Of a DNA stretch of 40,201 nt, positions 18,888-40,201 are shown piece after piece; within the stretch, counting starts at the first letter, position 1; every line of letters begins with the position of its first letter. The DNA lies in the NCBI GenBank assembly GCA_965652255.1, contig CBFGVC010000002.1, forward strand, positions 1-40,201, written 5' to 3'. The DNA is from an uncultured Fibrobacteria bacterium. Its GTDB lineage: Bacteria; Fibrobacterota; Fibrobacteria; UBA11236. Below the pieces are notes generated by a model. It was not told the DNA's origin. It did no database searches and worked only from the letters and a program-made list of their open reading frames with translations. A program made the translations under genes and the position numbers.

Positions 18888-19865
18888 ATGGGGGCTTCTG
18901 CCGGGACAATTCTTCGTCGGGGGTCGGGGGGCGGTCTGGGCCGGGACGTTCCGGGCGAGCCGTGGCTCGCCCCTACGGAATCCCTTTCGCCCCCGCGATC
19001 CATTGTGCGGGCCGTTTTGCGGCCCACGGCCATCGTTTTTTCGGGCGTGATCGGTCTCATTTTCGCCGCTTCCTGGGTGCGCGAATCTGTGATTCGTCGA
19101 AATTTCGCCATCATGGGGCTCGAAAAGCCCCGGTTTTTCCGCCTGCGGCTCGGCTTTGCCCTCGCCGGGAATCTCTTCGACCTCCTGATGCCCGGGCGGC
19201 TGCCCGCGCCGCGAATTCACTCTCGTTCGGTGCGCCACGCGGCGGCACTGGGCGGGGATGCCTGTAGGGTCGCGGCTAGCCGCGGCCCTACAGGATCGCT
19301 GTTATTGACCGCCCATTTCGGAAATTGGGAGGCACAGGCCGCCGCGTGGCGGGCCCTCGGCGTTCCGCTGCTCGGCGCCGCGCGGCCTATCCGCTCGGCC
19401 CGGGTGGCCGCGCTCGTTGCAAGGATTCGCGCGCGGCACGACATCCGCGTGGTTCACGCGGGCGTGCCGCGCGCCGCCCTTCGTCACCTGGGAGCGGGGG
19501 GATGCTTCGGCTTGCTCTGGGATCAGCACGCGCCGGATTCCATCCGGCCGGGCCGGTTCTTCGGCGCGGAGACGTCGCTGAATCCGCTGCCTTTTTTCCT
19601 GCTGCGAAAGCATCCCTGCCCGGTGTACTTCGGCGTGCTGTCGCCCGGGGGCGCGCTGCGGCTGGTCCTGTTGCTCGATCCCGTCCGAGGCTTTCGCGAC
19701 GGGTGGGAGGATCGCCTCGCGCGCCGCTATCACCGCGTGCTCGAGACTCTCGTCCGCGCGCGCCCCGCGCAGTGGCACGGCATCCTGCACGCGAGGTTCA
19801 AGACGCTGGGGAAGTATCCGGGACATCGGTCCTCACCCCCAACCCCGGGAAAGTCGAGACGCTGA
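18888..19865 (+). CDS. Lysophospholipid/lipid A acyltransferase family protein (LpxL/HtrB-like)
   Basis: An HFGNWE acyltransferase motif, an N-terminal TM ([16 protein letters not shown]) followed by RRNF, and the C-terminal [11 protein letters not shown] are present. The start is uncertain: ATG 18888 or GTG 19005. The last ~11 codons and the stop are supplied by repeat 19831..20071. Confidence 0.72.
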
Positions 19866-20388: not shown

Positions 20389-20482
20389 AACCTCCCTCGA
20401 CCCCGCCGCCGGCCTGCCCCGGGGCATGAAGGTTTGTATAAATAGGGCTATCTTGCCCGCGACCAGCCCGTTCACATGCCGC

Positions 20483-22861
20483 ATGGGAGTTTTTTTGCGC
20501 GCCTTCCGCCTTTCGTCCCGTATCTTCCTGCCCGCCCTTGCCGCCCTCGCGGCGGTGCCGCCCATGCCGGCGCACTCCCAGGGCAACGCAGCCGTCATCA
20601 CCTTGGTGATGCCCGTGGGCGCGCGCCAGCTGGGCATGGGCGAGGCCGCCGTCGCGCTTTCCGACGACGTGTACGGAACCTACTGGAATCCTGCGGGCCT
20701 GGCGTTCGGGCCCGTCTCCAACGAGTGGGAGCTCATGTATCCCGCCGCGCGGGCGGGCGGCGCGCGACGCGAGTTCACCGCCCTCGCGGCCCGTCCGCGC
20801 ACCGGCTTTCTTTCGCGTCCCGCCCTTTGGGTGGGCGCGCGCGACGGGCTGGTTTTCTATGACGGTCGCCGCTGGCGCGCCCACCACGAGCATGTGCTCG
20901 AACAGGGCGAGCGGATACACGCCGTGGTGCGCCGCTACGTCGGCGGTTCGGACGGGCTCGATTCCCTCGTCGCGCTGGTGCGCGCCTACAACGACGTCAA
21001 CACACGCGAGGACGAAGAGGATCTCATATCGCTCAGGATCCCCTACGACCTGCTGTTCCCCGGCCAACCCGTCACCGCGCTGGCGCTCGACAATACCGAT
21101 CGCCTGTGGGTGGGAACCCCCGAGGGGCTTTTCCGCTTCGACGGACAAGGATGGAAGGCCTTCGACCGCGAGGAGAACTTCACCTACCTGCCGCGCGGCA
21201 CGGCTCCGGCCGACACCGCGGAGATGGACACGGCGGCGGCTCCCGGGGCTTTCACGGGCGCGGGCGCGCAGGCCGGAGACACCGCCGCCAGCCCCTTCCG
21301 CAAGCTGGGCGTGACGGCGCTGGCGGTTAAGGGCGCCACGCTGTGGATCGGCACCACCGACGGGTTCTACGAGTACCGCCAGAACGCCATGTTCCGCCGC
21401 GGCCAGAACATCCTGCCCACGCAGCGCATCACCTCCATCGCGGTGCACGAATCGGTGGAGGACATCTACGTGGGCCTCGAGGGCGCCGGCGTCGCTCGCT
21501 ATCGCCCTCCGCGCTCCGCCGCCGCTCCGGCTCGCTGGCGCGTGTTCACCGCCACCGACGGCCTGCTCGACGACAACGTGACCCGCGTGCTCGTGGATCG
21601 CTTCGGCCACGTGTACACGGCGCACCCCGAGGGCGTCTCGCATTTCACGCTGCGCTCCTGGGAGAAAATCCGGTTTCGCGGCCAGCAGGTTCGCGGGCTT
21701 TCGCTCGACGAGAAGAACCGCGTTTGGGTCGCCACCTCGGAGGGCGCCTGGCAGTTCACGCCCACCCATGCCACTCCCAAGGGCCGGCGCCAGGCGGAAA
21801 AGGATCGCGCCGCCGGAGGCGCCGCTTCCGAGCGCATGGGCGGGGATTGGGCCCACTTCCACGCGGGCAACGGCCTGAGCGACAAGGACGTGGCGGCCAC
21901 GATGGCGGAAGGCAACGACGTGTGGTTCCTCACGGCGGCCGGCGTTGAGCGCTACCACAACGCCAAGGCGCAGGTGGGCTTCTTCTACGAAACGCTTTTG
22001 CCGGTGCTCAATCTCGACGACCTCTACCACGCCTACATGGCGGCAACGTTCCCCATCGAGGAGTGGGGCACGGTGGGCGGCTTCGTCAACTACGTGTCGT
22101 TCGGCCAGAACCTCACCACGGGCGAGGAAAACAGCCAGGCCACCTTCAGCGCCTATGAAATGGTCGCGGGCCTCACCTACGCCACGCGGCTCAACCGCAA
22201 CGCGGGCCTCGGCATCAACGCCAAGTTCATCTACTCCGCGCTGAGCCGCGGCGTCACCTCCAGCGGCGAGAAAACCGACGGCATCGCGGCCAGCTATGCG
22301 GTGGACGTGGGCTTTTTGCAAAAGAACCTGTTCGGGGTGACCGGCCTCTCGTACGGCCTCATGCTCCAGAACATGGGGCCGGCGGTCTTCTACGTCGACC
22401 AGGCCCAGTCCGACCCCATCCCGTTCACCTGGAAGACCGGTTTCGCCTACACCCTCATCAACCAGCCGAACCACCGGCTCGTCGCGGTGGCCGACATCAA
22501 CCGCGAGGCATTCTCCCATTCCGGAAACAGCACCGATCCCTTCTGGATCGGCGCGTGGAAGGAGGTCGTCAGCCCCTCCGGAACGGACATGAGCGGATCC
22601 TTCAGCGACAAGTTCGGCCGCGTGCTGGCGGAGAACTCCCGCCGCGCCGTTTACAATACCGGCGCGGAATACGTGTACGCCAACGTGGTCGCCGTGCGTT
22701 CGGGCTACCTGCACGACATCAGCGGCAAGCGCCGCGAGCTCGACGTGGGCCTCGGCTTCATGCTCTCCGACATCCTGCAGATCGACGGCACTTTCATTCG
22801 CTCGTTCGATGACGGCATCCGCAACGGCCAGCAGCGGTACAGCATGATTCTTCGATTCTGA
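20483..22861 (+). CDS. PorV/PorQ-like outer-membrane beta-barrel with an inserted ~7-repeat propeller (two-component-regulator-propeller-like) domain
   Basis: The ATG at 20483 gives signal MGVFLRAFRLSSRIFLPALAALAAVPPMPAHS; the alternative start is 20426. The N-terminal GARQLGMGEAAVALSDDVYGTYWNPAGLA matches the PorV-family signature. Seven hWVGT-x-GL/F-like repeats follow (LWVGARDGLVFY, LWVGTPEGLFRF, LWIGTTDGFYEY, IYVGLEGAGVARY, VYTAHPEGVSHF, VWVATSEGAWQF, VWFLTAAGVERY). A barrel body then ends ...RYSMILRF. Confidence 0.75.
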   Translation: MGVFLRAFRLSSRIFLPALAALAAVPPMPAHSQGNAAVITLVMPVGARQLGMGEAAVALSDDVYGTYWNPAGLAFGPVSNEWELMYPAARAGGARREFTALAARPRTGFLSRPALWVGARDGLVFYDGRRWRAHHEHVLEQGERIHAVVRRYVGGSDGLDSLVALVRAYNDVNTREDEEDLISLRIPYDLLFPGQPVTALALDNTDRLWVGTPEGLFRFDGQGWKAFDREENFTYLPRGTAPADTAEMDTAAAPGAFTGAGAQAGDTAASPFRKLGVTALAVKGATLWIGTTDGFYEYRQNAMFRRGQNILPTQRITSIAVHESVEDIYVGLEGAGVARYRPPRSAAAPARWRVFTATDGLLDDNVTRVLVDRFGHVYTAHPEGVSHFTLRSWEKIRFRGQQVRGLSLDEKNRVWVATSEGAWQFTPTHATPKGRRQAEKDRAAGGAASERMGGDWAHFHAGNGLSDKDVAATMAEGNDVWFLTAAGVERYHNAKAQVGFFYETLLPVLNLDDLYHAYMAATFPIEEWGTVGGFVNYVSFGQNLTTGEENSQATFSAYEMVAGLTYATRLNRNAGLGINAKFIYSALSRGVTSSGEKTDGIAASYAVDVGFLQKNLFGVTGLSYGLMLQNMGPAVFYVDQAQSDPIPFTWKTGFAYTLINQPNHRLVAVADINREAFSHSGNSTDPFWIGAWKEVVSPSGTDMSGSFSDKFGRVLAENSRRAVYNTGAEYVYANVVAVRSGYLHDISGKRRELDVGLGFMLSDILQIDGTFIRSFDDGIRNGQQRYSMILRF

Positions 22862-23233: not shown

Positions 23234-23650
23234 TTGAAGAATGTGACCAAGCAGGACCTTATCCAGGAAGTCTCGCGTTCCAGCGGCCGTTCGCAGGTGG
23301 AATCGCGAGGAGTGGTCGAGGAGTTCATGAAGGTCGTCACGGACCTTCTCGAAGCCGGCAAGATGATCGAGATCCGCGGCTTCGGCACCTTCTACGCGAA
23401 GGAGCGCAAGCCCCGGCCCGCGCGCAATCCCCGCACCGGCGAGGTTTGCCCGCTGGGCGCCCGCCGGGTGGCGTTGTTCCGGTTCTCTCCCGATGTGCGC
23501 CAGCACATCCACGAGGTGCCCGAGTTGCGTGAAGCGTTGGCGGCGCGAACCCTCGAGGAGGAGCGCGGTGTTTCGCTTGACCTCAAGGGCGACCTTGAGG
23601 GGGTCGGCCTCGATAAATCCGCTTACCGGGAGCCCCGACCGGTCGCGTGA
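23234..23650 (+). CDS. HU/IHF family DNA-binding protein with C-terminal extension
   Basis: TTG start at 23234; an in-frame GTG at 23243 is the alternative. MKNVTKQDLIQEVS...IEIRGFGTFYAKERKPRPARNPRTGEVCPLGARRVALFRFS is the HU/IHF fold with its beta-arm. About 45 aa of extra acidic/basic tail follow. Confidence 0.85.
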   Translation: MKNVTKQDLIQEVSRSSGRSQVESRGVVEEFMKVVTDLLEAGKMIEIRGFGTFYAKERKPRPARNPRTGEVCPLGARRVALFRFSPDVRQHIHEVPELREALAARTLEEERGVSLDLKGDLEGVGLDKSAYREPRPVA

Positions 23651-23798: not shown

Positions 23799-23817
23799 GT
23801 CCAAAGACTTTTTGGAC
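23799..23817. promoter_or_regulatory. Perfect palindrome GTCCAAA-N5-TTTGGAC upstream of P1
   Basis: gtccaaa (23799-23805), gactt, tttggac (23811-23817). It is centred about 58 bp upstream of the TATAAT at 23866. Confidence 0.4.
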
Positions 23818-23865
23818 AAAATGACCAGATTGCGGGAATAATGGATTTGAATTATTCGTGTTGGC

Positions 23866-23871
23866 TATAAT
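23866..23871 (+). promoter_or_regulatory. Candidate -10 box (TATAAT) for P1
   Basis: A perfect TATAAT hexamer sits in an AT-rich patch 99 nt upstream of the P1 ATG. The -35 is weak (TGGATT with an 18-nt spacer). Confidence 0.35.
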
Positions 23872-23969
23872 TGCCTGATATCCTGCCCAGAAGCGCTCAC
23901 GGAGCTTCCTGAAGCCTCCGTTCCTTCGGGGTGAAAGCTGCAAAGATTACCGGAGTGCGTAGCGAGAAA

Positions 23970-25079
23970 ATGAATCAGGTCGCGCGAAAACTCTCGAGCA
24001 AAGCAAGGTGCGCGGCATTCGCGGCCGTTGCATCGTTCTTCGCGCTCTCGGGTTGCCTTGGCGGTGGCGGAAGCCTGACCAACTTGCCCGCCAACGAGGC
24101 GACCTTGCTGAACCTCCACATCCGGTTGGGGAAGGTGGACGCATCGGCACCCGCCAACTCGGGAGTCCTGGGCAAAGCGGCGAACACGTTGACCAATGAT
24201 GAGCAGATCATTCTTAAGAACATGACCCTTCGCTTCACCTCGAACCTCAAGGATACGGTTTGGGACGTGGTGGACATGATTTCGGATACATCGCTGGGCG
24301 TCGGCGGCTTTCCCACCGGTGAAATTTCTGGCGACCGTTCCGTATGGGTGGACGTCAGCCTTCCCCCGCTGCGCTGGTGGGCCATCGAAATCAAGACCTA
24401 TGATATGCGTGACAGCGTCATTCATCAGGGAACGGTGACGGGCGTGTCCAGCAAGGGCGGGCAGACCGTGAATATCACCGTGCCCCTGCTGAACTCCCGC
24501 TTTTCCCTTTACGAGGCCCGTTATGTGCTGCCCGGCGAGATCTACGCGGCCGGGGTTCCCGAGGAGCAGCGCGTTTACCAGAAGGTCTTCTTCAGCCGGC
24601 TCGTGCTCGCGGTCGATGGAAAGGTCGTGCGCGACAGTTCCTCCTTCTCTCCAAGCATCACCTCGGCGGGCACGCGGTTCATCACCGCGGGAGACGCGTT
24701 GCGTGGCGCGGCGGGCCGGTTCTTTTTCCGCCCCGGCGCCGCGGGATCCGACACCATCACCCACCTGCAAACCTATCAGTATGTCGAGACGGGACTGCGG
24801 AGCTTCGATATCAGCGCCTATGGCTACCTCGAGGGCGATACCCTTGGCATGGAGCCCCGACTGTTGTTCCAAGGCAGCGCCACGCTGAACATCGCCGCGG
24901 GGGAGAACATCCAAAGCACGCCCGTGGTCCTTGCCTGGAAGGGGCCCGGGAGCTCGCCGAACGACAGCACGGTGACCCCCGGACATCCCGACTGGACCGG
25001 CGTGGGCATGAACGTGTTGATCGGCAAGACGGGTAAGGTAACCCAAACGATCGACATACCCGGGGGGCTGAACCTCTAG
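23970..25079 (+). CDS. Paralogous lipoprotein P1 (divergent family member, no propeller)
   Basis: The ATG at 23970 gives MNQVARKLSSKARCAAFAAVASFFALSGC with a lipobox. It shares the family blocks LRWWAIEIKTYDMRDSVIHQG, SRFSLYEARY and the C-terminal IGKTGKVTQTI. Confidence 0.8.
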   Translation: MNQVARKLSSKARCAAFAAVASFFALSGCLGGGGSLTNLPANEATLLNLHIRLGKVDASAPANSGVLGKAANTLTNDEQIILKNMTLRFTSNLKDTVWDVVDMISDTSLGVGGFPTGEISGDRSVWVDVSLPPLRWWAIEIKTYDMRDSVIHQGTVTGVSSKGGQTVNITVPLLNSRFSLYEARYVLPGEIYAAGVPEEQRVYQKVFFSRLVLAVDGKVVRDSSSFSPSITSAGTRFITAGDALRGAAGRFFFRPGAAGSDTITHLQTYQYVETGLRSFDISAYGYLEGDTLGMEPRLLFQGSATLNIAAGENIQSTPVVLAWKGPGSSPNDSTVTPGHPDWTGVGMNVLIGKTGKVTQTIDIPGGLNL

Positions 25080-25090
25080 CCGTGGCGGTA

Positions 25091-25106
25091 CGGCACGGTT
25101 TTCGCT
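25091..25106 (+). promoter_or_regulatory. sigma54 (-24/-12) promoter candidate for P2
   Basis: CGGCACGGTTTTCGCT has GG and GC at the exact canonical spacing (TGGCACG-N4-TTGCW). It lies 12 nt after the P1 stop and 43 nt before the P2 ATG. Confidence 0.6.
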
Positions 25107-25148
25107 CCTTTTTCGCTTCGTTGGGATCTGAGTCATCGAAGGGCTTTC

Positions 25149-26069
25149 ATGAGCATCAATTTTTTCAAAATTTCCGCACTTGCCTGCTTGGCCGCCTTCG
25201 TGGCCTTGGCTACGGGTTGCCTGAATGACAGCGGGGCCAGCCGGAATGACGAGGCCCGCCTGGTCGTCATGGCCGGCATGAAGGACGTCAACAAGGTCCG
25301 TCCTTTGGGGAAGACCTCCGTCATTTCGCTCCAGAAGCTGGTCATCACGCTGACTTCCAGCGTTCCAACGGATTCGGTTCGTCGCGACACGATCCTCGCC
25401 GACACCAACGCATCCTTCGTCTCCAACGCCACCATCGACCAGCAATTCACGCGTAACTATTCGATCAAGCCGCTGCGCAGCTGGACGATCGTCGTCAAGA
25501 CGCTCGACGCCAACGATTCCGTGATCCACTACGATTCCTCCGTGGCGGCGAACATGCTTGCGGGCGAGACGCGTCCGGTGACTGTCAACCTGGCCTCCCG
25601 CTTCGTGATGTACGAGGCCAAGTTCACCCTGCCTGACAGCCTGAACTTCCAGTTGTCCGGCTTCAAGGAGCAGCTCAAGGTGAACCGCGTGGTGCTCCGT
25701 GTGGACGGAACCATCGTGGCGGACTCCACGCGCAATCCGCGCTTCGAGCCCGGTTCCCCTTCGCCCACCATCCACACCGTGCGATTCGATTACATCCGCG
25801 TGAACCAAACCCCGGATGTCAAGGTCGAGTTCTACGGCAAGATCGGTAGCTACCCCGTCGATACGTTGCTCTTCGCCGTTGAATTCGAGGATGTGGATCC
25901 GGGCGATCCGAATCCCGCGCCCAAGGCACCCGATTATGTCGGCCCCAACGCGGAGGAAATCGCCGGCACCGCCATCGCGGGAATGGTGATCAACATCGGC
26001 AAGGTCGGCACCGTCGTGTTCAACACGAATATCAACGGAAACGTGTTCGGAAAGCCCTCTGTCGACTAG
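25149..26069 (+). CDS. Paralogous lipoprotein P2 (no propeller)
   Basis: MSINFFKISALACLAAFVALATGC has a lipobox. Family blocks are KPLRSWTIVVKTLDANDSVIHYDS, SRFVMYEAKFTLPDS and NIGKVGTVVF. Confidence 0.82.
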   Translation: MSINFFKISALACLAAFVALATGCLNDSGASRNDEARLVVMAGMKDVNKVRPLGKTSVISLQKLVITLTSSVPTDSVRRDTILADTNASFVSNATIDQQFTRNYSIKPLRSWTIVVKTLDANDSVIHYDSSVAANMLAGETRPVTVNLASRFVMYEAKFTLPDSLNFQLSGFKEQLKVNRVVLRVDGTIVADSTRNPRFEPGSPSPTIHTVRFDYIRVNQTPDVKVEFYGKIGSYPVDTLLFAVEFEDVDPGDPNPAPKAPDYVGPNAEEIAGTAIAGMVINIGKVGTVVFNTNINGNVFGKPSVD

Positions 26070-26086
26070 AGGGATCGCGACGAAAT

Positions 26087-26144
26087 CCTCCCGCAATACC
26101 GGGAGGGAAGACACAAGGGGGGCTTAAGGCCCCTCCTTTGTTTT
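26087..26144 (+). terminator. Tandem hairpins plus T-run after P2
   Basis: The first hairpin is cctcccg, caatac, cgggagg (26087-26106). A GC-rich stem follows at 26115-26138, then tttgtttt. Confidence 0.65.
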
Positions 26145-26207
26145 GGGGATGGTTTGGCCGGAGTGTTCGCATTCGGAGTCATTTTGACCATGAAACACTT
26201 GGGGGCG

Positions 26208-26220
26208 TGACACACTGTCA
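26208..26220. promoter_or_regulatory. Palindrome TGACA-cac-TGTCA (candidate enhancer/UAS for the P3 sigma54 promoter)
   Basis: The 5-bp arms are perfect. The centre lies 113 nt upstream of the -24 GG at 26327. An A7 tract and the palindrome aaaacgatcgtttt (26237-26250) lie between it and the promoter. Confidence 0.5.
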
Positions 26221-26325
26221 AAAAAATATGCTGGCGAAAACGATCGTTTTTAAGCCTTGCCGGGAAAACGACCTTTTCTGCAGAAGAATGTGGTTCTACG
26301 ATTCCGATTGAAATTCAAGGGGTGA

Positions 26326-26341
26326 TGGCACGATTCTCGCT
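26326..26341 (+). promoter_or_regulatory. sigma54 (-24/-12) promoter candidate for P3
   Basis: TGGCACGATTCTCGCT matches TGGCACG-N4-TTGCW at 11 of 12 specified positions with correct spacing. It lies 38 nt upstream of the ATG at 26379. Confidence 0.7.
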
Positions 26342-26378
26342 CCTTTCAGGGGTCAGGTAATAACGGAAAGAAGCAAAC

Positions 26379-27335
26379 ATGAAAATCAAGAGCCTTTTCC
26401 TCGCGACTTCGATGATCGGCGCCACGATCCTGGGCGGCTGCTTCATGACCGACGGGGGGAAACCCTCCGGTGACAACCAGCGCCCGGCGAATCTCGTCAT
26501 CAGCATGGGCGTCAAGGACGTGAACAATCTGTCCAAGCCCGGACTTTCCAAGTCCGCCGTCGCCAATGACGGCATCGTGCTGAGCAAGTTGGTCGTCACG
26601 CTCACCTCCAGCGTGGTCACCGATGCCGTCATTCGAGACACGGTGCTGGCGGACACCGGCGACTTCGTTTCCACTTCCACCGACGCTCAGCAGGTCCTCC
26701 GCAACTACGCAGTGAAGCCCTTGCGCAACTGGACCATCCAGGTCAAGACCCTCGACGTGAACGACTCCGTCATTCACATCTCCAGCTCGGTCCAAAACAA
26801 CCTCACCGTCGGCGAAGTTCGCCCGGTGACCTTGAACCTTGCCTCGAAGTTCGTGGTGTACGTCGCCAAGTTCGTGCTTCCGGACAGCATCGGATCGCAG
26901 TCGAGCGACCAAAAGCAGAAGCTTTACGTCCACCGCTTCATGATGGTGGTTGACGGCGACACCGTGCGCGACACCTCCACCACCCCCCCGGATTACTTCT
27001 CGGCGGCACCCGACACCCACAAGGTGTTCTGGAACTACGTGAAGGCCGACACGGTCCACACCCTGCAGTTGTACGTTTATGCCGACAGCCTGGGCGATTG
27101 GGATCCGAACCTGCCCATCTTCGGCGACACCATCCAGATCACCTCCACCGACACGACCTATACGCCGGAGCTGCCGTGGATGGGCCCGGGTTCCGAGCAC
27201 GACCCCGCTTGCCAGGCCAACCCGTCCAACTGTGGCGGCGCGACGACTGGGCTGACCATCAATATCGGCGCCGTGGGATCGGTGGTGATCGTTCCCGGCG
27301 TGCCCGAGAACCCGCTGCCGAAGCGCAAGTACTGA
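26379..27335 (+). CDS. Paralogous lipoprotein P3 (no propeller)
   Basis: MKIKSLFLATSMIGATILGGC has a lipobox. Family blocks are KPLRNWTIQVKTLDVNDSVIHISS, SKFVVYVAKFVLPDS and NIGAVGSVVI. Confidence 0.82.
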   Translation: MKIKSLFLATSMIGATILGGCFMTDGGKPSGDNQRPANLVISMGVKDVNNLSKPGLSKSAVANDGIVLSKLVVTLTSSVVTDAVIRDTVLADTGDFVSTSTDAQQVLRNYAVKPLRNWTIQVKTLDVNDSVIHISSSVQNNLTVGEVRPVTLNLASKFVVYVAKFVLPDSIGSQSSDQKQKLYVHRFMMVVDGDTVRDTSTTPPDYFSAAPDTHKVFWNYVKADTVHTLQLYVYADSLGDWDPNLPIFGDTIQITSTDTTYTPELPWMGPGSEHDPACQANPSNCGGATTGLTINIGAVGSVVIVPGVPENPLPKRKY

Positions 27336-27360
27336 TCGCTGCGATCCAGGCCCGATAACG

Positions 27361-27389
27361 AAAAAAGGGAGGCATAGCCTCCCTTTTTT
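27361..27389 (+). terminator. Rho-independent terminator after P3
   Basis: aaaaaa, gggaggc, ata, gcctccc, tttttt: a perfect stem with a T6 run. Confidence 0.85.
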
Positions 27390-27454
27390 CGTTTGGCTCC
27401 ACTCAGGGTTGTCTTGAGAGTTTGCCTTCCTGGCAAATCAGCGGCCTCGAACCG

Positions 27455-27467
27455 TGACACATTGGCA
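27455..27467. promoter_or_regulatory. Half-degenerate copy of the TGACA-N3-TGTCA motif upstream of P4
   Basis: TGACA-cat-TGGCA, embedded in cgtgacacattg (compare cgtgacacactg at 26206). The centre lies 131 nt upstream of the -24 GG at 27592. Confidence 0.35.
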
Positions 27468-27590
27468 ACAAGGAGAGGGGGCCACGGCATCGATTTTCGG
27501 CCCTTTTCGGCATTCGGTATAAAAGCCCCCTAAACGCCCTAAAAATGGCCGTTATTCAAAGAAAAATGAGCTTTTCAGGGGTTAAATCCT

Positions 27591-27606
27591 TGGCACGACT
27601 CTCGCT
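27591..27606 (+). promoter_or_regulatory. sigma54 (-24/-12) promoter candidate for P4
   Basis: TGGCACGACTCTCGCT differs from the P3 promoter at 1 of 16 positions. It lies 55 nt upstream of the ATG at 27661, which has an AAGGAG RBS at 27649-54. Confidence 0.7.
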
Positions 27607-27660
27607 TTAGCTAGGTTTCAAAGCCGTTAATCGGCGGATTTTATCAGCAAGGAGCCATTG

Positions 27661-28572
27661 ATGCGCAACTTCACCAAACACCTTTCGCTTGCGGCGGTTT
27701 CTGTCGCCGTTTTGGTCTTGAGCGCTTGCTTCGGCACGGCGTCGAACCCCGTCTCCACCTCCGAAGGCGAGGCCACGGTCGTGATCCAGACCAAGACGAA
27801 CAACGTCAACCGCCTGAGCAAGCCCGGCCTCGGGAAGTCGGCGGCCATCACCCTCGATAGCCTCATCGTGACGGCGATCTCCAACGCCTCCACCCCCGAC
27901 ACGGTCATCGTGAAGCTCGGCGTGGGCGATAGCGGCTTTTCCTCGGTCGCCACCTCGGACCAGAACATCGGCATCGTGCTCAACCTGAAGGCGCTGCGCA
28001 ACTGGACGATCTCGGCCAAGACGATCGACGTGAACGACTCGATCATCCAGGAAGGCTCCGTCGTCACGGGCAACCTCTTTGCCGGCCAAACCAAGATCGT
28101 GACGCTCAACGCCACCCCCAATTACACGATCTACACGGCGACCTTCAACTTCCCCGACAGCATCCAGTCGCCTACCGGAAACTTCAAGCAGAAGATCACC
28201 TTCAACAAGATCGAGCTTTTCTTCGACGGCGTGATGGCGGATGACTCGGTGGGAACCTTGGCTCCTTCCGTCAACCAGGTCCTCTCGTATGACTACGTGC
28301 CCACGGGAGTGCTGGCGCCTGATTCCGTGACCCTGAAGGTCTTCGGCAACATCGAGAACGCCGACACGCCCTGGAATGCGGGCAGCAACCTGCTGTACGA
28401 CACCACCGTCGCGATTTCCACGCTGAGCGCGGTTTACCCCGCGACGAATTCCGTCCCGCTCCTCTGGCGGGGTCCCGTGGATGGCGTCGTCGACCTGACG
28501 GTCGAGATCGAGAAGGTGGGCCAGGTCGCCATTGACGGCGAGACGAATCCCATCGTCCTGTCCAAGAAGTAA
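27661..28572 (+). CDS. Paralogous lipoprotein P4 (no propeller)
   Basis: The track start 27658 is a TTG; the ATG at 27661 has an AAGGAG RBS 6 nt upstream. MRNFTKHLSLAAVSVAVLVLSAC has a lipobox. Family blocks are KALRNWTISAKTIDVNDSIIQEGS, YTIYTATFNFPDSI and EIEKVGQVAI. Confidence 0.82.
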   Translation: MRNFTKHLSLAAVSVAVLVLSACFGTASNPVSTSEGEATVVIQTKTNNVNRLSKPGLGKSAAITLDSLIVTAISNASTPDTVIVKLGVGDSGFSSVATSDQNIGIVLNLKALRNWTISAKTIDVNDSIIQEGSVVTGNLFAGQTKIVTLNATPNYTIYTATFNFPDSIQSPTGNFKQKITFNKIELFFDGVMADDSVGTLAPSVNQVLSYDYVPTGVLAPDSVTLKVFGNIENADTPWNAGSNLLYDTTVAISTLSAVYPATNSVPLLWRGPVDGVVDLTVEIEKVGQVAIDGETNPIVLSKK

Positions 28573-28687: not shown

Positions 28688-30448
28688 ATGAAGTTCTCCG
28701 CGAAAAACACCCTGCACGGCGCGACGGTCCTCATGGCCGCCCTTGCCATGGCGGGGTGTTTCGCGTCGGGGAACCCCACCTCGTCCCGACCGATCCCGCA
28801 AGGCGACGAGGTGGGCCTCAAGATCCGCATGGGCGTCGGCAGCGTGACCGCCTTGGGCAAGTCATCGGTTATCACCCTCGACAAGCTCGTGCTCGTCATC
28901 TCGTCGAGCGCCAACGACACGATCCGCGACACCATCACGTCGTCGACGACGCCGGCTCTCAACCCCGTCTCCACAACGGGGCAGACCGTCTCCAAGAACT
29001 ACACGCTCAAGGCGCTTCGTTCCTGGAAGATCGTCGTGACCTCGCGCGACGTGCTCGACAGCGTCATCCACGTCGACTCGGTGGTGGTGCCCGCCCTGTA
29101 CGCGGGCGACACGGCCCAGGTGAACCTCAATCTTTCGTCGCGGTACAGCATGTACGAGGCGAAATTCCTCTCGTTGCCCGACAGCATCCAGTCGGCCACC
29201 CCCTCGCAGCCGAAGCAGGCGCTTTGCATCAACCGGCTGGTGCTCAAGATCGACGGCGCCTCGGTGCGCGACTCTTCCTCGACCGGGCCGTGCTTCGCGT
29301 CGGCAACCACGCACACGCTGGCATACGATTACGTGAGCCTCGGCGCCAAGACGATCGTCGCCTCCGGATCCTCCCAAACCCTGTACGGCATCCACTTCCC
29401 CACGGCTGACACGGGTTACATCGTGGGCGACGACGTCACGTTGAGGAGCGTGGACGGGGGCGCCACCTGGTCGCCGCAAGCCACGGGCGGGACGGCCAAG
29501 ACCCTGCGCGCCGTTCATTTCCTCAATGGCACGACCGGTGTCATCGCCGGAGGCGGCGACAGCGTCGTCATCCGCCGAACCACCAACGCCGGTTCAGGTT
29601 GGACCCGCCCCGTGGGCTCTTCCAGCGCCAACACCATCCGCGCGCTTCACATCGTCAACGACACCGGCTGGGCGTCGCGCTCGCACCTGACCTCGCCGAC
29701 TGGCAGCTACCAGTACTACATCACGGTCGACGGCGGCGCGAGCTGGACGGCCACTGTCAACCAGAACCAGGCCTATTCGATCCGCGGCGTGAACGGCACG
29801 ACGGCCTGGGCCGTCGGTCCCGCGGGAATGATTCGAAAGAACACCACGGCCGCCGGGCATTTTTCCACGGTGCAAACCAGCGGCACCACCCGCACCTTGC
29901 GCTCGGTGTTTCCCGTGAACGCGAACCTTGTCTACGTGGTGGGCGACACGGGCACCGTGTTGCGCACCACGGACGGCGGCGCCAACTGGGCGGCGAAGAC
30001 GAGCGGCACCACCCTGAACCTGAATTCCGTTTACTTCCTCGATGCGGCCACCGGTTTCGCCGTGGGCGACAATGGCATCGTCCTCAGCACCTCCGACAGC
30101 GGCAACACGTGGACCTCGGAGTCCAGCCCCGCTTCCGTGAACTTGAACGCCATCACGTTCGTGGGCGGCAAGGGGTATGTGGTGGGGGCGAACGGCACCT
30201 TGTTCACGGTGAACGGCCCCCGCCAGGTCGAGATGCTGGCCTACGGCCCGATGAATTCCTGGAACGTTGCGCTGCCGCTGTACAGCGGGTCGAAGTACAT
30301 CAACGCGCTTCCCGGAACGGATGCGACGCTTCCCCTCACGCTTTCGTGGACCGGTCCCACCACCGGCACCGGCAAGATCGACGCCGAGCTCGGGAAAGTG
30401 GGCAAGATCACGATCAACGGCACATTGCCAGGGACCACGATGCCCTGA
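28688..30448 (+). CDS. Paralogous lipoprotein P5 with one inserted 7-bladed Asp-box (Ycf48/BNR-like) beta-propeller
   Basis: The ATG at 28688 gives MKFSAKNTLHGATVLMAALAMAGC with a lipobox. The family N-module is present (KALRSWKIVVTSRDVLDSVIHVDS, SRYSMYEAKFLSLPDSI). Seven ~40-aa blades carry SxDxGxTW-type Asp-boxes (SVDGGATW, TTDGGANW, TSDSGNTW) at about 29381-30220. The family C-module follows (VEMLAYGPM...LGKVGKITING). Confidence 0.85.
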   Translation: MKFSAKNTLHGATVLMAALAMAGCFASGNPTSSRPIPQGDEVGLKIRMGVGSVTALGKSSVITLDKLVLVISSSANDTIRDTITSSTTPALNPVSTTGQTVSKNYTLKALRSWKIVVTSRDVLDSVIHVDSVVVPALYAGDTAQVNLNLSSRYSMYEAKFLSLPDSIQSATPSQPKQALCINRLVLKIDGASVRDSSSTGPCFASATTHTLAYDYVSLGAKTIVASGSSQTLYGIHFPTADTGYIVGDDVTLRSVDGGATWSPQATGGTAKTLRAVHFLNGTTGVIAGGGDSVVIRRTTNAGSGWTRPVGSSSANTIRALHIVNDTGWASRSHLTSPTGSYQYYITVDGGASWTATVNQNQAYSIRGVNGTTAWAVGPAGMIRKNTTAAGHFSTVQTSGTTRTLRSVFPVNANLVYVVGDTGTVLRTTDGGANWAAKTSGTTLNLNSVYFLDAATGFAVGDNGIVLSTSDSGNTWTSESSPASVNLNAITFVGGKGYVVGANGTLFTVNGPRQVEMLAYGPMNSWNVALPLYSGSKYINALPGTDATLPLTLSWTGPTTGTGKIDAELGKVGKITINGTLPGTTMP

Positions 30449-30462
30449 TTCGGAGTGATCGC

Positions 30463-32232
30463 ATGAAAGCCCGCAATCACTCCGTTCAACTCATCCTTGC
30501 GGTCGGGCTGTTCCCGGTTCTTCTCCTGCTTGTCGGTTGCTTCGACTCCGGAACGTCTCCCCGGTCAAAGCGTGCTTTCTCCGTCGACCCCGTCCTGAAG
30601 CTGCGCGTGGGCATGGCAGGCTTGAAGTCGCTCGCGAAAAGCTCCGACATTTCCCTGGACAAGCTGGTCATCGTCCTCAGTTCAAGCGCGAACGACACGA
30701 TCCGCGACACCCTCACGTCGCTGACCACGCCGGCATTGAACCCGCTTTCCACCAATCCCCAGACGATCGCCAAGCCCTACGCGCTCAAGGCCCTTCGTAC
30801 ATGGAAGGTGGTCGTGACATCGCGCGATGTTCTCGACAGCGTCATTCACAGGGATTCCGCCCTTATTCCCGTCCTGTATGCGGGCGATACGGCGGTGGCC
30901 AACTTGAATCTTTCCGCGCGCTACAGCATGTATGCGGCGACGTTCCTGAGCATCCCCGACAGCATTTCGTCCGCTTCCGGGACGCACAAGCAAAAACTGA
31001 ATATCGACCGCCTGGTCTTGAAGATAAACGGCACGGTAGAGCGCGATTCCGCCCCGGATCCCGGCCCTTATTTCGCCTCCGGCATCCCCTACGTTCTGGA
31101 CTACGACTATGTGCCCACCGGGACGGCCGGTGGGTGGGGGCTGGTCTCGAGCGGCACGATGCAGGACCTTTACAGCGTCGCCTTCAGCGGTCCGGACACC
31201 GGCTTTGCCGTGGGCGACAACATGACCCTCAGGACGCTGGATGGAGGCAAGACCTGGGGCGTGAGGGACCATGCCCCGCTCATCATGCGGGCCGGATTTG
31301 TCGTGAACGGCCTCACGGCTTACGGCGCCGGCGACATGGGCTTGGTCTCTTCCACGCATACCGGCGGGGAGGACGGCAACGCGCAGTTCCTTCCGGAGCC
31401 GGACTTTCCCGAGGCCGCCGACAATCCCTCCCTGAACACCCTCTTTTTCACGAGCGCTTCCACGGGCTATGCCGCCGGCGACGGCGGGGCCATCTGGAAA
31501 ACGACCGACAGCAGCAACGCTTGGGTCGCCCAGACGAGCGGCACGTCGCAGCATCTCCGATCCGCGCATTTCGCGGACGCCGCCACGGGCTGGATGGCGG
31601 GCGACGGCGGCGTCATCCTGAAGACGACCAACGGCGGGACCGATTGGGCGGCGCAAACAAGCGGTACGGCGAACGGACTGAACGGGGTCCACTTCGTCGA
31701 TGCCGGAAACGGATGGGCCGTGGGCGCGGCCGGGACGATTCTCAAGACGACCAACGGCGGAGCCGATTGGACGCCCCAGGCCAGCGGCGTTTCCCATCAC
31801 CTCCGCACCGTTTATTTTCTGGACGCTTCCACGGGCTATGCCGCCGGCGACAGCGGGACATTGCTGAAAACCTTAAACGGCGGAAGCACCTGGACCCGGG
31901 AATTCACGGGGATCACCCACAGGCTCCGCTCTCTCCGGTTCTCCGGACCCAGGGGCTATGCCGTGGGCGACGCGGGAACGGTCCTTTCCTTGGTTCCCGG
32001 AAATGTCCTGATCGAGATGCAGGCCTATGGACCCATGGGTTCGTGGAACACCGCCGAACCCCTGTACCAAGGCGCCAAGGTGATTTCCACCCTGGCCGGG
32101 CAGGACTCCACCGTTTCCTTGACCCTGAATTGGGTCGGTCCGGCGACCGGTGCGGGAAGTCTGGAGGTTGAGGTGGGCAAGGTCGGAAAAATCACGATCG
32201 ACGGTACCGTACCGGACGTCGTCACGCCCTGA
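30463..32232 (+). CDS. Paralogous lipoprotein P6 with one inserted 7-bladed Asp-box beta-propeller
   Basis: The ATG at 30463 lies 14 nt after the P5 stop, with a GGAG RBS, so the two are probably an operon. MKARNHSVQLILAVGLFPVLLLLVGC has a lipobox. It is the closest paralogue of P5. Seven blades lie at about 31168-32000, and the C-module is IEMQAYGPM...VGKVGKITIDG. Confidence 0.85.
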   Translation: MKARNHSVQLILAVGLFPVLLLLVGCFDSGTSPRSKRAFSVDPVLKLRVGMAGLKSLAKSSDISLDKLVIVLSSSANDTIRDTLTSLTTPALNPLSTNPQTIAKPYALKALRTWKVVVTSRDVLDSVIHRDSALIPVLYAGDTAVANLNLSARYSMYAATFLSIPDSISSASGTHKQKLNIDRLVLKINGTVERDSAPDPGPYFASGIPYVLDYDYVPTGTAGGWGLVSSGTMQDLYSVAFSGPDTGFAVGDNMTLRTLDGGKTWGVRDHAPLIMRAGFVVNGLTAYGAGDMGLVSSTHTGGEDGNAQFLPEPDFPEAADNPSLNTLFFTSASTGYAAGDGGAIWKTTDSSNAWVAQTSGTSQHLRSAHFADAATGWMAGDGGVILKTTNGGTDWAAQTSGTANGLNGVHFVDAGNGWAVGAAGTILKTTNGGADWTPQASGVSHHLRTVYFLDASTGYAAGDSGTLLKTLNGGSTWTREFTGITHRLRSLRFSGPRGYAVGDAGTVLSLVPGNVLIEMQAYGPMGSWNTAEPLYQGAKVISTLAGQDSTVSLTLNWVGPATGAGSLEVEVGKVGKITIDGTVPDVVTP

Positions 32233-32398
32233 GCAATCCCCTCGCGATGCTCCTCGCCGCATGTCTCCCGGGTCGAACCGGGCCTTTGCTCCGGGCCGTG
32301 CGGCCGTCGCGGAACCGTTTGCCATAATTTCAAATGTTTGCGTTACGAAACCTTTCTGAGGCCAGTTAAATTTTGTGCTGACAGGGACTTAAACACCC

Positions 32399-35300
32399 AT
32401 GATTGTTGGAAATACCAGCAGATTCCCGAACCGGCCGAGAGCGTCGCATCTCGTCGCGCGCGCGGCCTTCGGTGTGCTGGCCACCGCGCTTTTCGCCTCG
32501 TGTCTGCTTGACCCCGATCGCGGGGGATCCCAATCGGCGCGCAGCGGCGCGCCCGGCTACGTCGGCTTCGAGCTTTCGCTCGAGCGCAACCAAAGGGCCT
32601 TGGGCAAGGCGATGGCGGGGGGCGACACCACGTTCACGCTCGACTCGCTGATCATCGTGCTCACGGCCCCGGGTGCGGACACGATCGTCGAGCGGCTTTC
32701 CATTTCGGGCCGAGCCGACACCGGCGCCATCGACGTGGCTCCCCGGTTTTACACCCTGTTGTCGCTCCGCAACTGGAAGGCCCGCTTCTACACCATCGAC
32801 ACCACCGTGACCCCCTCGCGGCGCGACACGGTGCACATCGACTCCGTGGTTTTCGCCGTGCGGCCGGCCGATACGACGATGGTGACCAAGACCGTCTCCG
32901 CGGCATTCGCCATTCTCCGTGCACGGTTCTATTCCGACAAGCGCGACTCCCTCGGCGCGGGAATCCGCTTCGTGCGCATCCGCGTGCGCGGGGCGACGCG
33001 CGATTCCATCGCGCTCACCGGCGACGTCCTGAATGCCGTGTGGTTCGCCAACCCCGCCACGGGCTGGGCCGTGATGGATACCGGCCGAATCCTGAAGAGC
33101 ACCGACAGCGGCCGCACATGGTTCCCCCAACCGAGCGGCACGACGGCTCACCTGCGCACCCTGAGCTTCGCGAGCACCTCGATCGGGTGGGTCGCCGGCG
33201 ACGACGGCGTCATCCGCAAGACCACCAACGGCGGCACGAGCTGGAGCGCGCAGGCGAGCGGAACGACCCGGCGCATCCGCCGGATTTTTTTCGTGGACGT
33301 GGACAAGGGATATGTCGTGGGCGACTCGGGGCTGGTGCTCAAGACCGTCAATGGCGGGTCCGATTGGTTCCCGATCCACGGCGGCTGGCTGGGCATGAAC
33401 GTCGGCGCGGGCTCCACCACGCTGAACGACGTCTGGTTCTCCGGGGCCACCGGCTATGTCGTGGGCAACGGCGGCATGATCCGCAGAAGCACCGATCACG
33501 GCGCCACCTGGAACGCCATGACGAGCCCCACGGGCAACAATCTCGTCAACCTGGCGTTCGGGAGCGCCTCGGCAGTTTATGCGGCCGGCGCGGCGGGAAC
33601 GATCTCGAAGTACAACGGAACGTCGTGGAGCAACCTTTCCACGGGCACCACCCAAGCGTTGTCGGGGATTCACTTCGGCGATGCGAACCGAGGCTGGGCG
33701 GTCGGCAACGCGGAAACGGCGATCCGCACGGTCAACGGCTCGGGCTGGTCGCGCGCGGCCGCGGGATGGAACCCCAAGACCAGCGGCACGTCGAACGCCC
33801 TGAACTCCGTGAATTTCGGCGGCGCCGACACCGGTTGGGCCGCCGGGGCCTCAGGCACCCTTCGCAAGACCGTGAACGGGGGACAGAACTGGGGGGCCGT
33901 CGCAAGCGGGACGTCCGGCGACCTGAACGCGGTGTACGCGGCCAACGGCACGAAGGCCTGGGCGGTGGGCGCCGGGGAGACGATCGTGCGCACTGCAAAT
34001 GGAACCGACTGGAGCGAAGCCCTCCCTTGGTTCGCCCTCGCCAGCAACACCACCGATTCCCTGTTGTCGATCCACTTCGGATCCGCCACGAACGGCATCG
34101 CCGTGGGAGCCGGCGGCCGGGTTTCGCGCACCTCCACCAGCGGAAACAACTGGACGGCCTCCACCTCCGGAAGCAACCGGCTCAACGCGGTCTGGATGCG
34201 CGACGGGAACAACGCGGTGGCCGTGGGCGTCGGCTCCTCGAACGCCAACATCCGGTACACAACCAATGGCGGTTCCGGCTGGACGGCGGTTTCCAACAGC
34301 GGAACATCGAACGAATTGCGCGGTGTCTGGTCGGACGCCGGCGGCACGCGCTACTTCGCGGTGGGAGCCGGGGGGGTGATCCGCGGCGCCACCACCGTGA
34401 CCGCCAATCCTTGGACCACCCATACATCGGGTACCACGAACCGGCTCAATGCAGTATTCTCGAACGGATCGCGGGCATGGGCCGTGGGCGACGGGGGTGT
34501 CATCCGCCGCATCACCACCATCTCGAACACGAATTGGAGCACCGTGACGAGCGGTACGACCGCCCAGCTCAACGGGGTGTATTTCACGAGCAACAACGTG
34601 GGCTACGTGGTGGGCAACGGGGGCCTCATCCGCAAGTGCACCAACAGCAACAACAACAACTGGACGACGCAGGCCAGCGGCACCACCGAGGACCTGTTGC
34701 ACGTGTTCTTCCGGGGCACGAGCGATACGGGCTATGTGACGGGAGCGAACGGCACGATTCTCAAAACGGTGAACGGGGGGGCGGCCTGGACACCCTTGGC
34801 CACCGGCTCCAGCCAGGTCCTGAACGCGGTTTTCGTGCGAGGGGTCGCCGCCGACACGGTGTACGCCGCCGGGGCGGGCGGGGCCATCCTGAAATCCACC
34901 TCCGGCGGGCGCTTTTCGCGCCGCGGCACGTTGCAAGGCCTGCGGGCCGCTCATTTCTACAACGCCACGTCGGGCTTCGCGGTGGGCGATTCGGGCACCC
35001 TTGCGCGCACCTTGACGTCGGGAGACAACTGGACCAACCTGAACAGCGGGGTCAGCACGCGCCTCAACGCGGTGTTTTCGAACGGCACGCGGGCTTGGGT
35101 GGTGGGCGACGGCGGAATCATCCGCCGCATCACGTCCATCTCGGCCACGAGTTGGAGTTCGGTGACCAGCGGCACGACGACCCAGCTCAACGGGGTGTAC
35201 TTCACGAGCAACAACGTGGGCTACGTGGTGGGCAACGGGGGCCTCATCCGCAAGTGCACCAACAGCAACAACAACAACTGGGCGACGCAGACCAGCGGCA

Positions 35301-36736: not shown

Positions 36737-36827
36737 TCGGTTTTCGTCGCTGAAATTTTCTCCGAATTTTCGGGTGATTTCAACGTGCCGGCAGGTTTGC
36801 CAAAATTACATTACCGAGGAATCTGTT

Positions 36828-36840
36828 TGACAGGGTGTCA
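36828..36840. promoter_or_regulatory. Palindrome TGACA-ggg-TGTCA (candidate enhancer/UAS for the P8 sigma54 promoter)
   Basis: This is the same TGACA-N3-TGTCA architecture as 26208-26220. The centre lies 89 nt upstream of the -24 GG at 36923. The adjacent palindrome attgat-tgc-atcaat (36840-36854), AT-rich DNA and an A8 tract (36883-36890) follow. Confidence 0.5.
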
Positions 36841-36921: not shown

Positions 36922-36937
36922 CGGCCCGGTATTTGCG
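36922..36937 (+). promoter_or_regulatory. sigma54 (-24/-12) promoter candidate for P8
   Basis: CGGCCCGGTATTTGCG has GG at 36923-24 and TTGC at 36933-36, with canonical spacing. It lies 68 nt upstream of the TTG start at 37005. Confidence 0.55.
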
Positions 36938-40000: not shown

Positions 40001-40201
40001 CCTCAAGACCACCGACGGCGGAGCCACGTGGGTGGAACAGCGCCGGCAGGTCGGACAGACGCTATACGGGGTTTATTTCCGCAGTTCCACCCTGGGTTGG
40101 GTGACGGGCGATAACGGCCTCATCCTCAAGACCACCGACGGCGGTACCAACTGGACGACGCAAACAAGCAACACCTCCATCGCCTTGCGCTGGGTGCAAT
40201 T
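37005..40201 (+). CDS. Paralogous lipoprotein P8 (5' partial view; continues past the window end) with at least 20 Asp-box propeller blades
   Basis: It is absent from the ORF track because there is no stop in the window; the frame is open from 36912. The TTG at 37005 gives (M)NFRQITLGILKPAAVLSALSLAAC with a lipobox; TTG 37026 is an alternative. The first ATG falls after the lipobox Cys. The N-module is closest to P7 (ALRNWTARFYSID, GRDTVHIDSVVF, PAFAILRARF). Blades run through to 40201. Confidence 0.8.
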   Translation, partial: MNFRQITLGILKPAAVLSALSLAACMLVEPGKAPGARISGETGYVNLKLDLERNKRRALGKSAAADTAFQLDSLIVVLAAPGFSEETHRYPISGRPDTGDISVMLPTYQLAALRNWTARFYSIDERVSPPGRDTVHIDSVVFGIFPGDTTAVSKIVSPAFAILRARFVSSLADSIPNNVLWLRLRVDGVVRDSQPVGGSNASLNWLQALSGSRIVAMGDSGKILRSSNNGSSWSLQTLSGYPDMAAGYFPSETEGFAVSRAGMLYKSADSGKTWISRNAFPDSVNTVFMTGPTEGFAAGRGGGIYKFIGEGWTKHTTISNTSQRLNGLHFPSSSIGYAVGENETILKTINGTTDGYNVLWSAVAGGWFPQNSQTSSDIRGVHFISKDTAWVVGAGGYARVTYDGGATWQDRNRNFNINSISFWGASRGWMAGDGGEIRQYVSEYNWKSDVNSGTSQNLYEIRAIGNDTVFVVGANGALRRTVNGSAASHLVVWSGMSLPVSQASAWTAKTSNTTTALNAVHFANANKGYAVGASRNVSVTSNGGESWSSASVGNTGGTYHAVFAVNADVAYIGGSGGNNNGANANFRRTTNGGSSWTGVPSGISTDIRGIAAVSTSVGWIVGPSNVIRSTDNLNAGTPTWTDRNAGTGNYNAIDITSDNVWVVGENAQVRRAWGKGHNAAFSVVNNSGLGSTNLRAVQFLASDNAVGWVVGDGGLIAKTTSGTWSVDWVVQGSPVTEDLVDVMFLNADTGYVTGANGTVLKTVNGGAVWAVSSTGSSQPLNGVHAWNGSTVVAVGGAGTVLKTTIGGQQPGLNRNFRSVHPVTSSLVYLAGDSGTIGKTTNGGAVWQLQTSGTSAHLYGIHFANANVGWAVGAGGVIRKTTDGGANWNPQTSNTTQNLRSVRAVSADTAYATGTGGLMLKTVDGGATWYTQETPAGTPQLNRVHFLNASVGFAVGANGTILKAVNQGDNWTGGGIKRSLKGVYFVSTTTGWIVGADGIILKTTDGGATWVEQRRQVGQTLYGVYFRSSTLGWVTGDNGLILKTTDGGTNWTTQTSNTSIALRWVQ

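Follow-up and report, generated by a model that had tools for sequence, protein, structure and literature searches.

We analyzed a 40.2 kb stretch of Fibrobacteria DNA (contig CBFGVC010000002.1; GC content 65.8%), which is referred to here as the window and the second half of which contains eight paralogous lipoprotein genes on the same strand, named P1 to P8. Short elements are present upstream of P2, P3 and P4, and a weaker one is located upstream of P8. Judged from their sequence, these elements are very probably −24/−12 promoters that depend on sigma-54 (RpoN). A first-pass annotation of the window had identified them as such, and this identification was upheld by their spacing, their agreement with the consensus, their strand and distance relative to the genes, their conservation, the phased boxes upstream of them and the fact that no sigma-70 promoter was predicted.

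Promoter-like elements upstream of P2, P3, P4 and P8

The four elements of the window are the following:

25091-25106, plus strand: −24/−12 element of P2, CGGCACGGTTTTCGCT, which begins 12 nt past the P1 stop codon; predicted transcription start at about 25117
26326-26341, plus strand: −24/−12 element of P3, TGGCACGATTCTCGCT; predicted transcription start at about 26352
27591-27606, plus strand: −24/−12 element of P4, TGGCACGACTCTCGCT; predicted transcription start at about 27617
36922-36937, plus strand: weaker −24/−12 element of P8, CGGCCCGGTATTTGCG; predicted transcription start at about 36948

The first-pass annotation had quoted the first three of these 16-mers together with their positions (25091, 26326 and 27591), and had stated that GG and GC are placed at the canonical sigma-54 spacing, that the sites are located shortly upstream of start codons, and that P2 and P3 share a downstream sequence. 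All of this was borne out. The sequences and positions are exact, 10 nt lie between GG and GC in the P2, P3 and P4 sites, the gaps between the elements and the start codons (ATG at 25149, 26379 and 27661) are 42, 37 and 54 nt, respectively, and the downstream sequence TCGCTCCTTT is indeed common to P2 and P3. The three elements are non-coding, are located on the plus strand and have the same orientation as their genes. They agree with the sigma-54 consensus (TGGCAC-N5-TTGCW) at 11-12 of its 12 positions. Their TCGCT box, with a C at position −14, differs from TTGCW but is not atypical, because it is identical to the −12 box of the Salmonella glnA promoter TGGCACAGATTTCGCTTT, which is a proven sigma-54 promoter (PMC3844500).

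The pattern YGGCAYG-N4-TCGCT (YGGCAYGNNNNTCGCT) has three matches in the window. Over 100 dinucleotide shuffles, the mean number of matches was 0.08, and no shuffle (0/100) reached three. When up to three mismatches to TGGCACG-N4-TTGCW are allowed, the window overall is not enriched, with 40 matches versus 61 expected, and the only one-mismatch matches in the window are the P3 and P4 sites. The earlier claim that the housekeeping DNA contains no comparable match also held, as bases 1-23000 are without any site that keeps GG and GC at one mismatch or fewer. The fourth site, which had been reported upstream of P8 at 36922, is real but weaker, having three mismatches with GG-N10-GC kept. This site gains support because two enhancer-like boxes are located 88 and 118 nt upstream of it, and because GG-N10-GC sites are found in front of the orthologous BNR genes (see below).

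P5, P6 and P7 have no −24/−12 element. In the P7 leader such an element was sought and not found; in GGCCAGTTAAATTTTGTGC, a distance of 15 nt separates GG from GC. The gap between P5 and P6 is 14 nt, and these two genes are probably transcribed on from P4, while P5 to P7 are probably co-transcribed or driven from another promoter. Prediction of sigma-70-type promoters gave none in the P3 and P4 leaders.

Boxes of another type were observed upstream of P7 and P1. The P7 leader contains at positions 32360-32375 the sequence GGCCAGTTAAATTTTG, which is common with the related loci L006 and L017 (TAAATTTG in those) and resembles the Bacteroidetes −7 box TAnnTTTG. Upstream of P1, a TATAAT-like box, GGCTATAATTGCC, is located at 23863-23875, and the related loci L014, L002 and L001 have CG(C/T)TATAATTTCG. 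The P1 box lies about 25 nt ahead of the −24/−12 site that is carried by other loci, and it may constitute a second, sigma-70-type P1 promoter.

Conservation of the element in related loci

A total of 79 homologues of P3 were found, all of which are metagenomic or derived from metagenome-assembled genomes (MAGs), with the named ones being designated “Fibrobacteria bacterium”. We fetched 22 related loci, and used the orthologue alignment as the profile since an alignment of the eight paralogues was too divergent. Synteny is kept throughout the loci, which contain mnmE, yidC, yidD, rnpA, rpmH, an acyltransferase gene, a small open reading frame, a PorV-like gene, an IHF/HU-like gene and P1-P4, and continue on to the BNR giants.

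Of the 22 loci, 15 contain exact matches to YGGCAYG-N4-TCGCT, 27 in total. All of these matches are on the gene strand, and all but one (26/27) are located directly upstream of P2, P3 or P4 orthologues. The orthologous proteins are just 40-70% identical to those of the window, and the element is preserved at the orthologous site of about 20 loci even though their flanking intergenic DNA has diverged. Intergenic regions were also aligned with MAFFT, blind to the motif, for 14 P4-type upstream regions (alignment A3) and 13 P3-type upstream regions (alignment A4). In both, invariant columns are present only in the terminator of the preceding gene, in two upstream boxes and in TTGGCA..CTCGCT, with a mean column identity of 37-50% elsewhere. 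Within the element, TTGGCA and CTCGCT are invariant in A3, and the columns GGCA..T.GCT are invariant in A4. The P4 5′ untranslated region (UTR) can form a hairpin, GCCG-TTAAT-CGGC, at 27623-27635; its orthologues have CCGG-loop-CCGG there, followed by the conserved sequence ACCAAGGAGTTGTAATG.

The sites of the other genes are kept to different degrees. For P2, most orthologous P1-P2 gaps contain CGGCA(C/A)G-N4-T(C/T)GC(T/A) immediately 3′ of the stop codon of P1; L018 and L019 lack the element, and it is not found where the two genes abut. The P1 orthologues of eight loci are preceded by TGGCAYG-N4-T[GA]GCT, and those of L014 and L002 by CGGCACG-N4-TTGCA. The latter sequence aligns to a degenerate site in the window:

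23927-23942, plus strand: degenerate P1 site, CGGGGTGAAAGCTGCA

On the basis of this alignment, the P1 site probably is a weakened element. The orthologues of the BNR giants have more variable GG-N10-GC sites, for example TGGCATGCACCTTGCG in L020 and L021, and TGGCCCGAAGCTTGCA in L001. Altogether, alignments A3, A4 and A6 and the anchored profile show an element that is kept in orthologues while its flanks diverge, as expected for a sequence that appears to be under purifying selection.

Three other explanations for the presence of the element were considered. As the genes are tandem paralogues, the similarity between their upstream sites might be a functionless remnant of tandem duplication. 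However, the P2, P3 and P4 proteins share a mutual identity of just 27-44%, their upstream regions are unalignable outside the motifs, and about 20 genomes have retained the motifs at the orthologous sites despite the divergence of the flanks. A passive remnant is effectively refuted by this orthologue comparison, and we give it next to no credence.

Secondly, the conserved block might function at the RNA level, by forming a structure in the 5′ UTR or a processing site, in which case transcription would start further upstream. The leaders of P4 orthologues contain a small hairpin 3′ of the element (CCGG-loop-CCGG), which would be in line with this. Yet a search of the whole window against Rfam gave no match, neither a consensus structure nor covariation was detected in the P4 leaders with RNAalifold, and the block is kept as a fixed sequence without compensatory changes. 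Moreover, the stretch of 180-200 nt between the upstream terminators and the element contains no predicted promoter. We therefore consider a function of the block in the RNA to be very unlikely.

Thirdly, the element might be a promoter for an alternative sigma factor of the sigma-70 family, of the extracytoplasmic function (ECF) type. Genes encoding envelope proteins are often under the control of ECF sigma factors, and an ECF sigma factor controls the type IX secretion genes of Porphyromonas. The conserved blocks of the element, though, are 4 nt apart, versus 16-18 nt in −35/−10 promoters, and conservation is lacking where a −35 box would be, which makes an ECF-type promoter highly improbable.

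Two of the MAGs, corresponding to loci L001 and L004 (CAZKRC010000030.1 and CAYQFG010000124.1), are titled “uncultured Bifidobacterium sp.”. They contain a Fibrobacteria-type locus with a GC content of about 62%, and these Bifidobacterium labels look wrong.

Enhancer-like boxes and the proposed regulatory module

Besides the −24/−12 elements, the upstream regions contain enhancer-like boxes and, in the case of P3 and P4, intrinsic terminators. Scores are those of a position weight matrix (PWM) trained on other loci only.

23814-23826: single enhancer-like box of P1, GGACAAAATGACC
26117-26144, plus strand: intrinsic terminator after P2, which isolates the P3 unit; conserved in A4
26177-26189: distal enhancer-like box of P3, AGTCATTTTGACC; 13.0 bits; 31 bp from the proximal box
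26208-26220: proximal enhancer-like box of P3, TGACACACTGTCA; centre 112 nt before the −24 element
27361-27391, plus strand: intrinsic terminator after P3, which isolates the P4 unit; conserved in A3
27423-27435: distal enhancer-like box of P4, TGCCTTCCTGGCA; centre 162 nt upstream
27455-27467: proximal enhancer-like box of P4, TGACACATTGGCA; centre 130 nt upstream
32320-32332: single enhancer-like box of P7, TGCCATAATTTCA; 16.1 bits; leader without a GG-N10-GC element
36798-36810: distal enhancer-like box of P8, TGCCAAAATTACA; 118 nt upstream
36828-36840: proximal enhancer-like box of P8, TGACAGGGTGTCA; centre 88 nt upstream

Two dyad boxes of the type TGNCA-N3-TGNCA, 31-33 bp apart and about 90-165 nt upstream of the −24 element, are present at each of P3, P4 and P8; those of P3 and P4 were revealed by the alignments. 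Exact matches to TGNCA-N3-TGNCA (TGNCANNNTGNCA) occur three times in the window (at 26208, 27455 and 36828), versus 0.39 expected, and each of them is located 88-130 nt upstream of a −24/−12 site. The PWM detected nine matches in the window versus 3.4 in shuffles. Eight of these nine lie within the array, seven in intergenic regulatory regions and one in the P2 coding sequence. An enhancer-like box, TGCCTGAATGACA, is found at 25218-25230 (13.4 bits) in the region encoding the P2 signal peptide, 127 nt downstream of the P2 element; it could be due to chance or be a downstream P2 enhancer.

In 264 kb of loci, 62 of the 128 box-like matches are located in the 3.8% of the sequence that lies 40-260 nt upstream of −24/−12 sites. 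The distance between the two boxes is 31-33 bp, corresponding to three helical turns, in 22 of 25 promoters. Distances between the proximal box and the promoter fall into classes that differ by steps of about 10-11 bp (112-114, 121-123, 129-133, 142-144, 154 and 167). The phasing gave a Rayleigh R of 0.52-0.57 with a maximum at a period of 10.5-11.5, a statistic that is indicative only, as the sites share ancestry. The P3 box pair of the window is located one helical turn (about 10 bp) nearer to the promoter than that of most orthologues (112/143 versus 122/154), which is consistent with a face-of-helix constraint. The spacers between boxes and promoters are AT-rich, having a GC content of 0.40-0.50 versus 0.62-0.66 for the loci. 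Paired, phased dyads located about 90-170 bp upstream constitute the standard layout for enhancer-binding proteins (EBPs) at sigma-54 promoters. The boxes, as putative binding sites, have the features of bacterial enhancers, namely dyad symmetry, two sites, a position on the same helical face and phasing.

The boxes, together with the 16-mer, might also be explained without sigma-54. The 16-mer could be the operator of an ordinary repressor or activator and the boxes further operators, with transcription starting from an unrecognised housekeeping-type promoter. The housekeeping promoters of Fibrobacteria are uncharacterised, so that the missing sigma-70 consensus is weak evidence against such a promoter; in addition, the element is close to the genes, where repressors bind, and a TATAAT-like box is present before P1 and a TAnnTTTG-like box before P7. 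An operator, however, would have to mimic a sigma-54 promoter by coincidence, since the element is asymmetric, agrees with 11-12 of the 12 consensus positions and has the exact GG-N10-GC spacing. Furthermore, the element has 14 of 18 bases in common with the glnA promoter, and two phased dyads 90-165 nt upstream are typical of enhancers and not of operators. We consider the operator explanation to be improbable.

In the regulatory module proposed for P3 and P4 (and for the weaker P8 site), a terminator (P3 and P4) is followed by two boxes with a spacing of about 32 bp, an AT-rich stretch measuring about 80-120 nt, TGGCAYG-N4-TCGCT, a 5′ UTR of 27-57 nt containing a Shine-Dalgarno sequence and, finally, the lipoprotein gene. 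P3 and P4 would each form an independent unit because a conserved intrinsic terminator precedes each of them. The sequence elements, their geometry and their conservation in diverged genomes are observed, and the events at the promoter are inferred. Under the sigma-54 interpretation, RNA polymerase with sigma-54 would form a closed complex at the −24/−12 element. A single AAA+ enhancer-binding activator, whose gene would lie elsewhere in the genome, would bind the boxes upstream of P1, P3, P4, P8 and perhaps P7, and would then oligomerise, loop to the polymerase and open the promoter using ATP. The AT-rich spacer, being intrinsically bendable, might facilitate looping, as might the IHF-like protein. 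With one activator binding all the paired boxes, the whole array would be switched on jointly by one signal. The P1-P2 gap of 69 nt leaves no room for an enhancer of its own, and P2 presumably borrows the enhancers of its neighbours or is also read through from P1.

Several observations weigh against this interpretation. P2 has no box beside its promoter, and the P1 element is degraded in the window. Only scattered one-mismatch matches to the IHF consensus (WATCAANNNNTTR) were found in the spacers, none of them at a conserved position. The phasing statistic uses sites that are related by descent and hence not independent. Finally, screening of all six frames of the window, which is the whole contig, and of the loci for GAFTGA, RpoN-box and Walker-A signatures of EBPs and RpoN gave nothing but chance matches; the sole GAFTGA string, at 21245, is a chance occurrence in a low-complexity linker of the PorV-like protein. 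Likewise, no activator was found by Pfam analysis of the housekeeping half of the window. The first-pass annotation had already proposed that the activator is encoded outside the window, and the lack of an EBP or rpoN signature in the window and in the fetched loci agrees with this. RpoN is present in both Fibrobacteres genomes that were in IMG in 2011 (PMC3372290). That phylum-level table is all that was found in the literature on sigma-54 in Fibrobacter, and a cross-phylum survey of sigma-54 regulons from 2025 does not mention Fibrobacter.

The lipoprotein array, its neighbours and known systems

The genes of the array and the two genes preceding it are the following:

20426-22861, plus strand: PorV/PorQ-family outer-membrane barrel gene, fused to an N-terminal two-component-regulator propeller (Reg_prop)
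23234-23650, plus strand: IHF/HU-family gene, directly 5′ of P1; best model IHF-alpha with 77.8 bits, under the cut-off of 111
23973-25079, plus strand: P1, lipoprotein paralogue
25149-26069, plus strand: P2, lipoprotein paralogue
26379-27335, plus strand: P3, lipoprotein paralogue
27661-28572, plus strand: P4, lipoprotein paralogue
28688-30448: P5, paralogue
30463-32232: P6, paralogue
32399-36736: P7, paralogue
37005-40201, plus strand: P8, large paralogue with the N-terminal domain common to P1-P8 and then BNR/Ycf48-like repeats; continues past the end of the window

The N-terminal domain is common to all eight proteins, and P5-P8 contain additional BNR/Ycf48-like propeller repeats. The PorV-like/Reg_prop gene is kept at the head of the locus across the related loci, and a Bac_DNA_binding gene is present at the IHF/HU-like position in all syntenic loci. 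We conjecture that the IHF/HU-family gene beside P1 may encode a DNA-bending or architectural partner of the sigma-54 promoters. The first 20 kb of the window contain housekeeping genes according to Pfam (Mur ligase, trpF, mnmE, yidC and acyltransferase). A sequence CGGCACG-N4-CCGCG is located at 19434-19449 on the plus strand, inside the acyltransferase-like gene, and is also kept in L001 (1090), L006 (1079) and L020 (3361); it most likely reflects coding conservation. Sigma-54 sites inside genes are known from other systems (PMC4591121).

The proteins of the P1-P4 family gave no match against Pfam, NCBIfam and PDB sequences. A lipoprotein signal peptide is present, and the lipobox Cys is invariant in all paralogues, P1 to P8, and in all homologues. 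AlphaFold models of P3 and P4, with a predicted local distance difference test score (pLDDT) of 73-74, contain two beta-sandwich domains. The best Foldseek matches of the P3 model are type V pilins and anchors of Bacteroidia (3up6, 3r4r, 5cag, 4rdb and 5nfi), with E values of 1e-5 to 1e-4 and a template modelling (TM) score of about 0.3. For the P4 model, 3r4r and 3up6 were found more weakly (E values of 2.5e-3 to 4.5e-3), among C2 and other sandwiches. Of 45 family members, 44 have a motif L-x-K-[STGA] at 30-40 aa past the lipobox Cys, as do 8/8 paralogues of the window. In P3 it corresponds to residues 56-60 (at about 26544-26558 of the window), and lies in a variable, low-confidence loop after the first strand of the model. 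By analogy, it is possibly a protease processing site; the processing sites of FimA and Mfa1 are Arg46 and Arg49 (PMC8512630).

The array resembles type V pilus (FimA/Mfa) loci in having tandem paralogous genes for lipoproteins that are about 300 aa long and have two beta-sandwich domains (predicted in the case of the array), and in the conserved basic residue 30-40 aa past the lipidated Cys, which is comparable to Arg46/Arg49. It differs from them in that the TM score is only about 0.3 and the P1-P4 family gives no sequence match, the FimA/Mfa families of Pfam included. The predicted fold thus weakly resembles that of type V pilins, and we take this as a lead and not as a claim of membership. 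To date, reports of type V pilins are confined to Bacteroidia (PMC8512630). It is conceivable, though rather unlikely, that the array encodes a pilus-like or polymerising surface-lipoprotein system akin to type V pili, in which P1-P4 would be shaft or anchor proteins and the BNR proteins P5-P8 tip adhesins, with several subunit genes driven by sigma-54 modules of their own, one activator and a dedicated IHF-like protein.

The array would represent a known mechanism in a new place. The first-pass annotation had called sigma-54 control of surface lipoproteins unusual; the proposed control itself stood, but its unusualness was overstated, as sigma-54 control of envelope proteins is an already described theme that concerns the cell exterior, including lipoproteins (PMC3162934). 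Our understanding of how sigma-54 works is left unchanged. Comparative genomics here defines a putative sigma-54 regulon element (promoter, enhancer box and geometry) for Fibrobacteria, an uncultured, high-GC lineage whose transcription signals have so far been uncharacterised. In combination, the two motifs provide a means of searching Fibrobacteria genomes for the remaining regulon and for the activator. They also flag an unannotated, conserved family of tandem lipoproteins beside a PorV-like gene as a candidate co-regulated surface system.

Of the known sigma-54 systems, the NtrC-activated glnAp2 promoter of E. coli and Salmonella has nearly the same core (glnA TGGCACAGATTTCGCTTT versus P4 TGGCACGACTCTCGCTTT), and its two activator sites likewise are dyad-symmetric, lie more than 100 bp upstream and are spaced by about three helical turns. 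These activator sites are located at −140 and −108. The boxes of the array, TGNCA-N3-TGNCA, are different from the NtrC dyad, which is longer; the target genes of the array encode lipoproteins and are not nitrogen assimilation genes, and the module is repeated gene by gene. The control of type IV pilin genes by PilR/PilS and sigma-54 in Pseudomonas, Myxococcus and Geobacter is similar in that an EBP and sigma-54 drive the structural genes of a surface appendage. However, the proteins are unrelated, the array has several promoters, and no two-component genes are located nearby. Activator sites of the PilR type are tandem and have a TGTC-type core, which we regard as a lead only.

As in the IHF-assisted nifH and Pu promoters, the putative enhancers of the array are separated from the promoters by an AT-rich spacer, and the locus includes a conserved IHF-family gene. 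The array differs from those promoters in having no IHF consensus at a conserved position. In Borrelia, expression of surface lipoproteins is under the control of sigma-54 through the Rrp2-RpoN-RpoS pathway, as cited in PMC3162934. That control is indirect: a single sigma-54 promoter is located at rpoS, and RpoS in turn drives the lipoprotein genes. In the array, by contrast, the −24/−12 elements are located directly before the lipoprotein genes, together with their putative enhancers.

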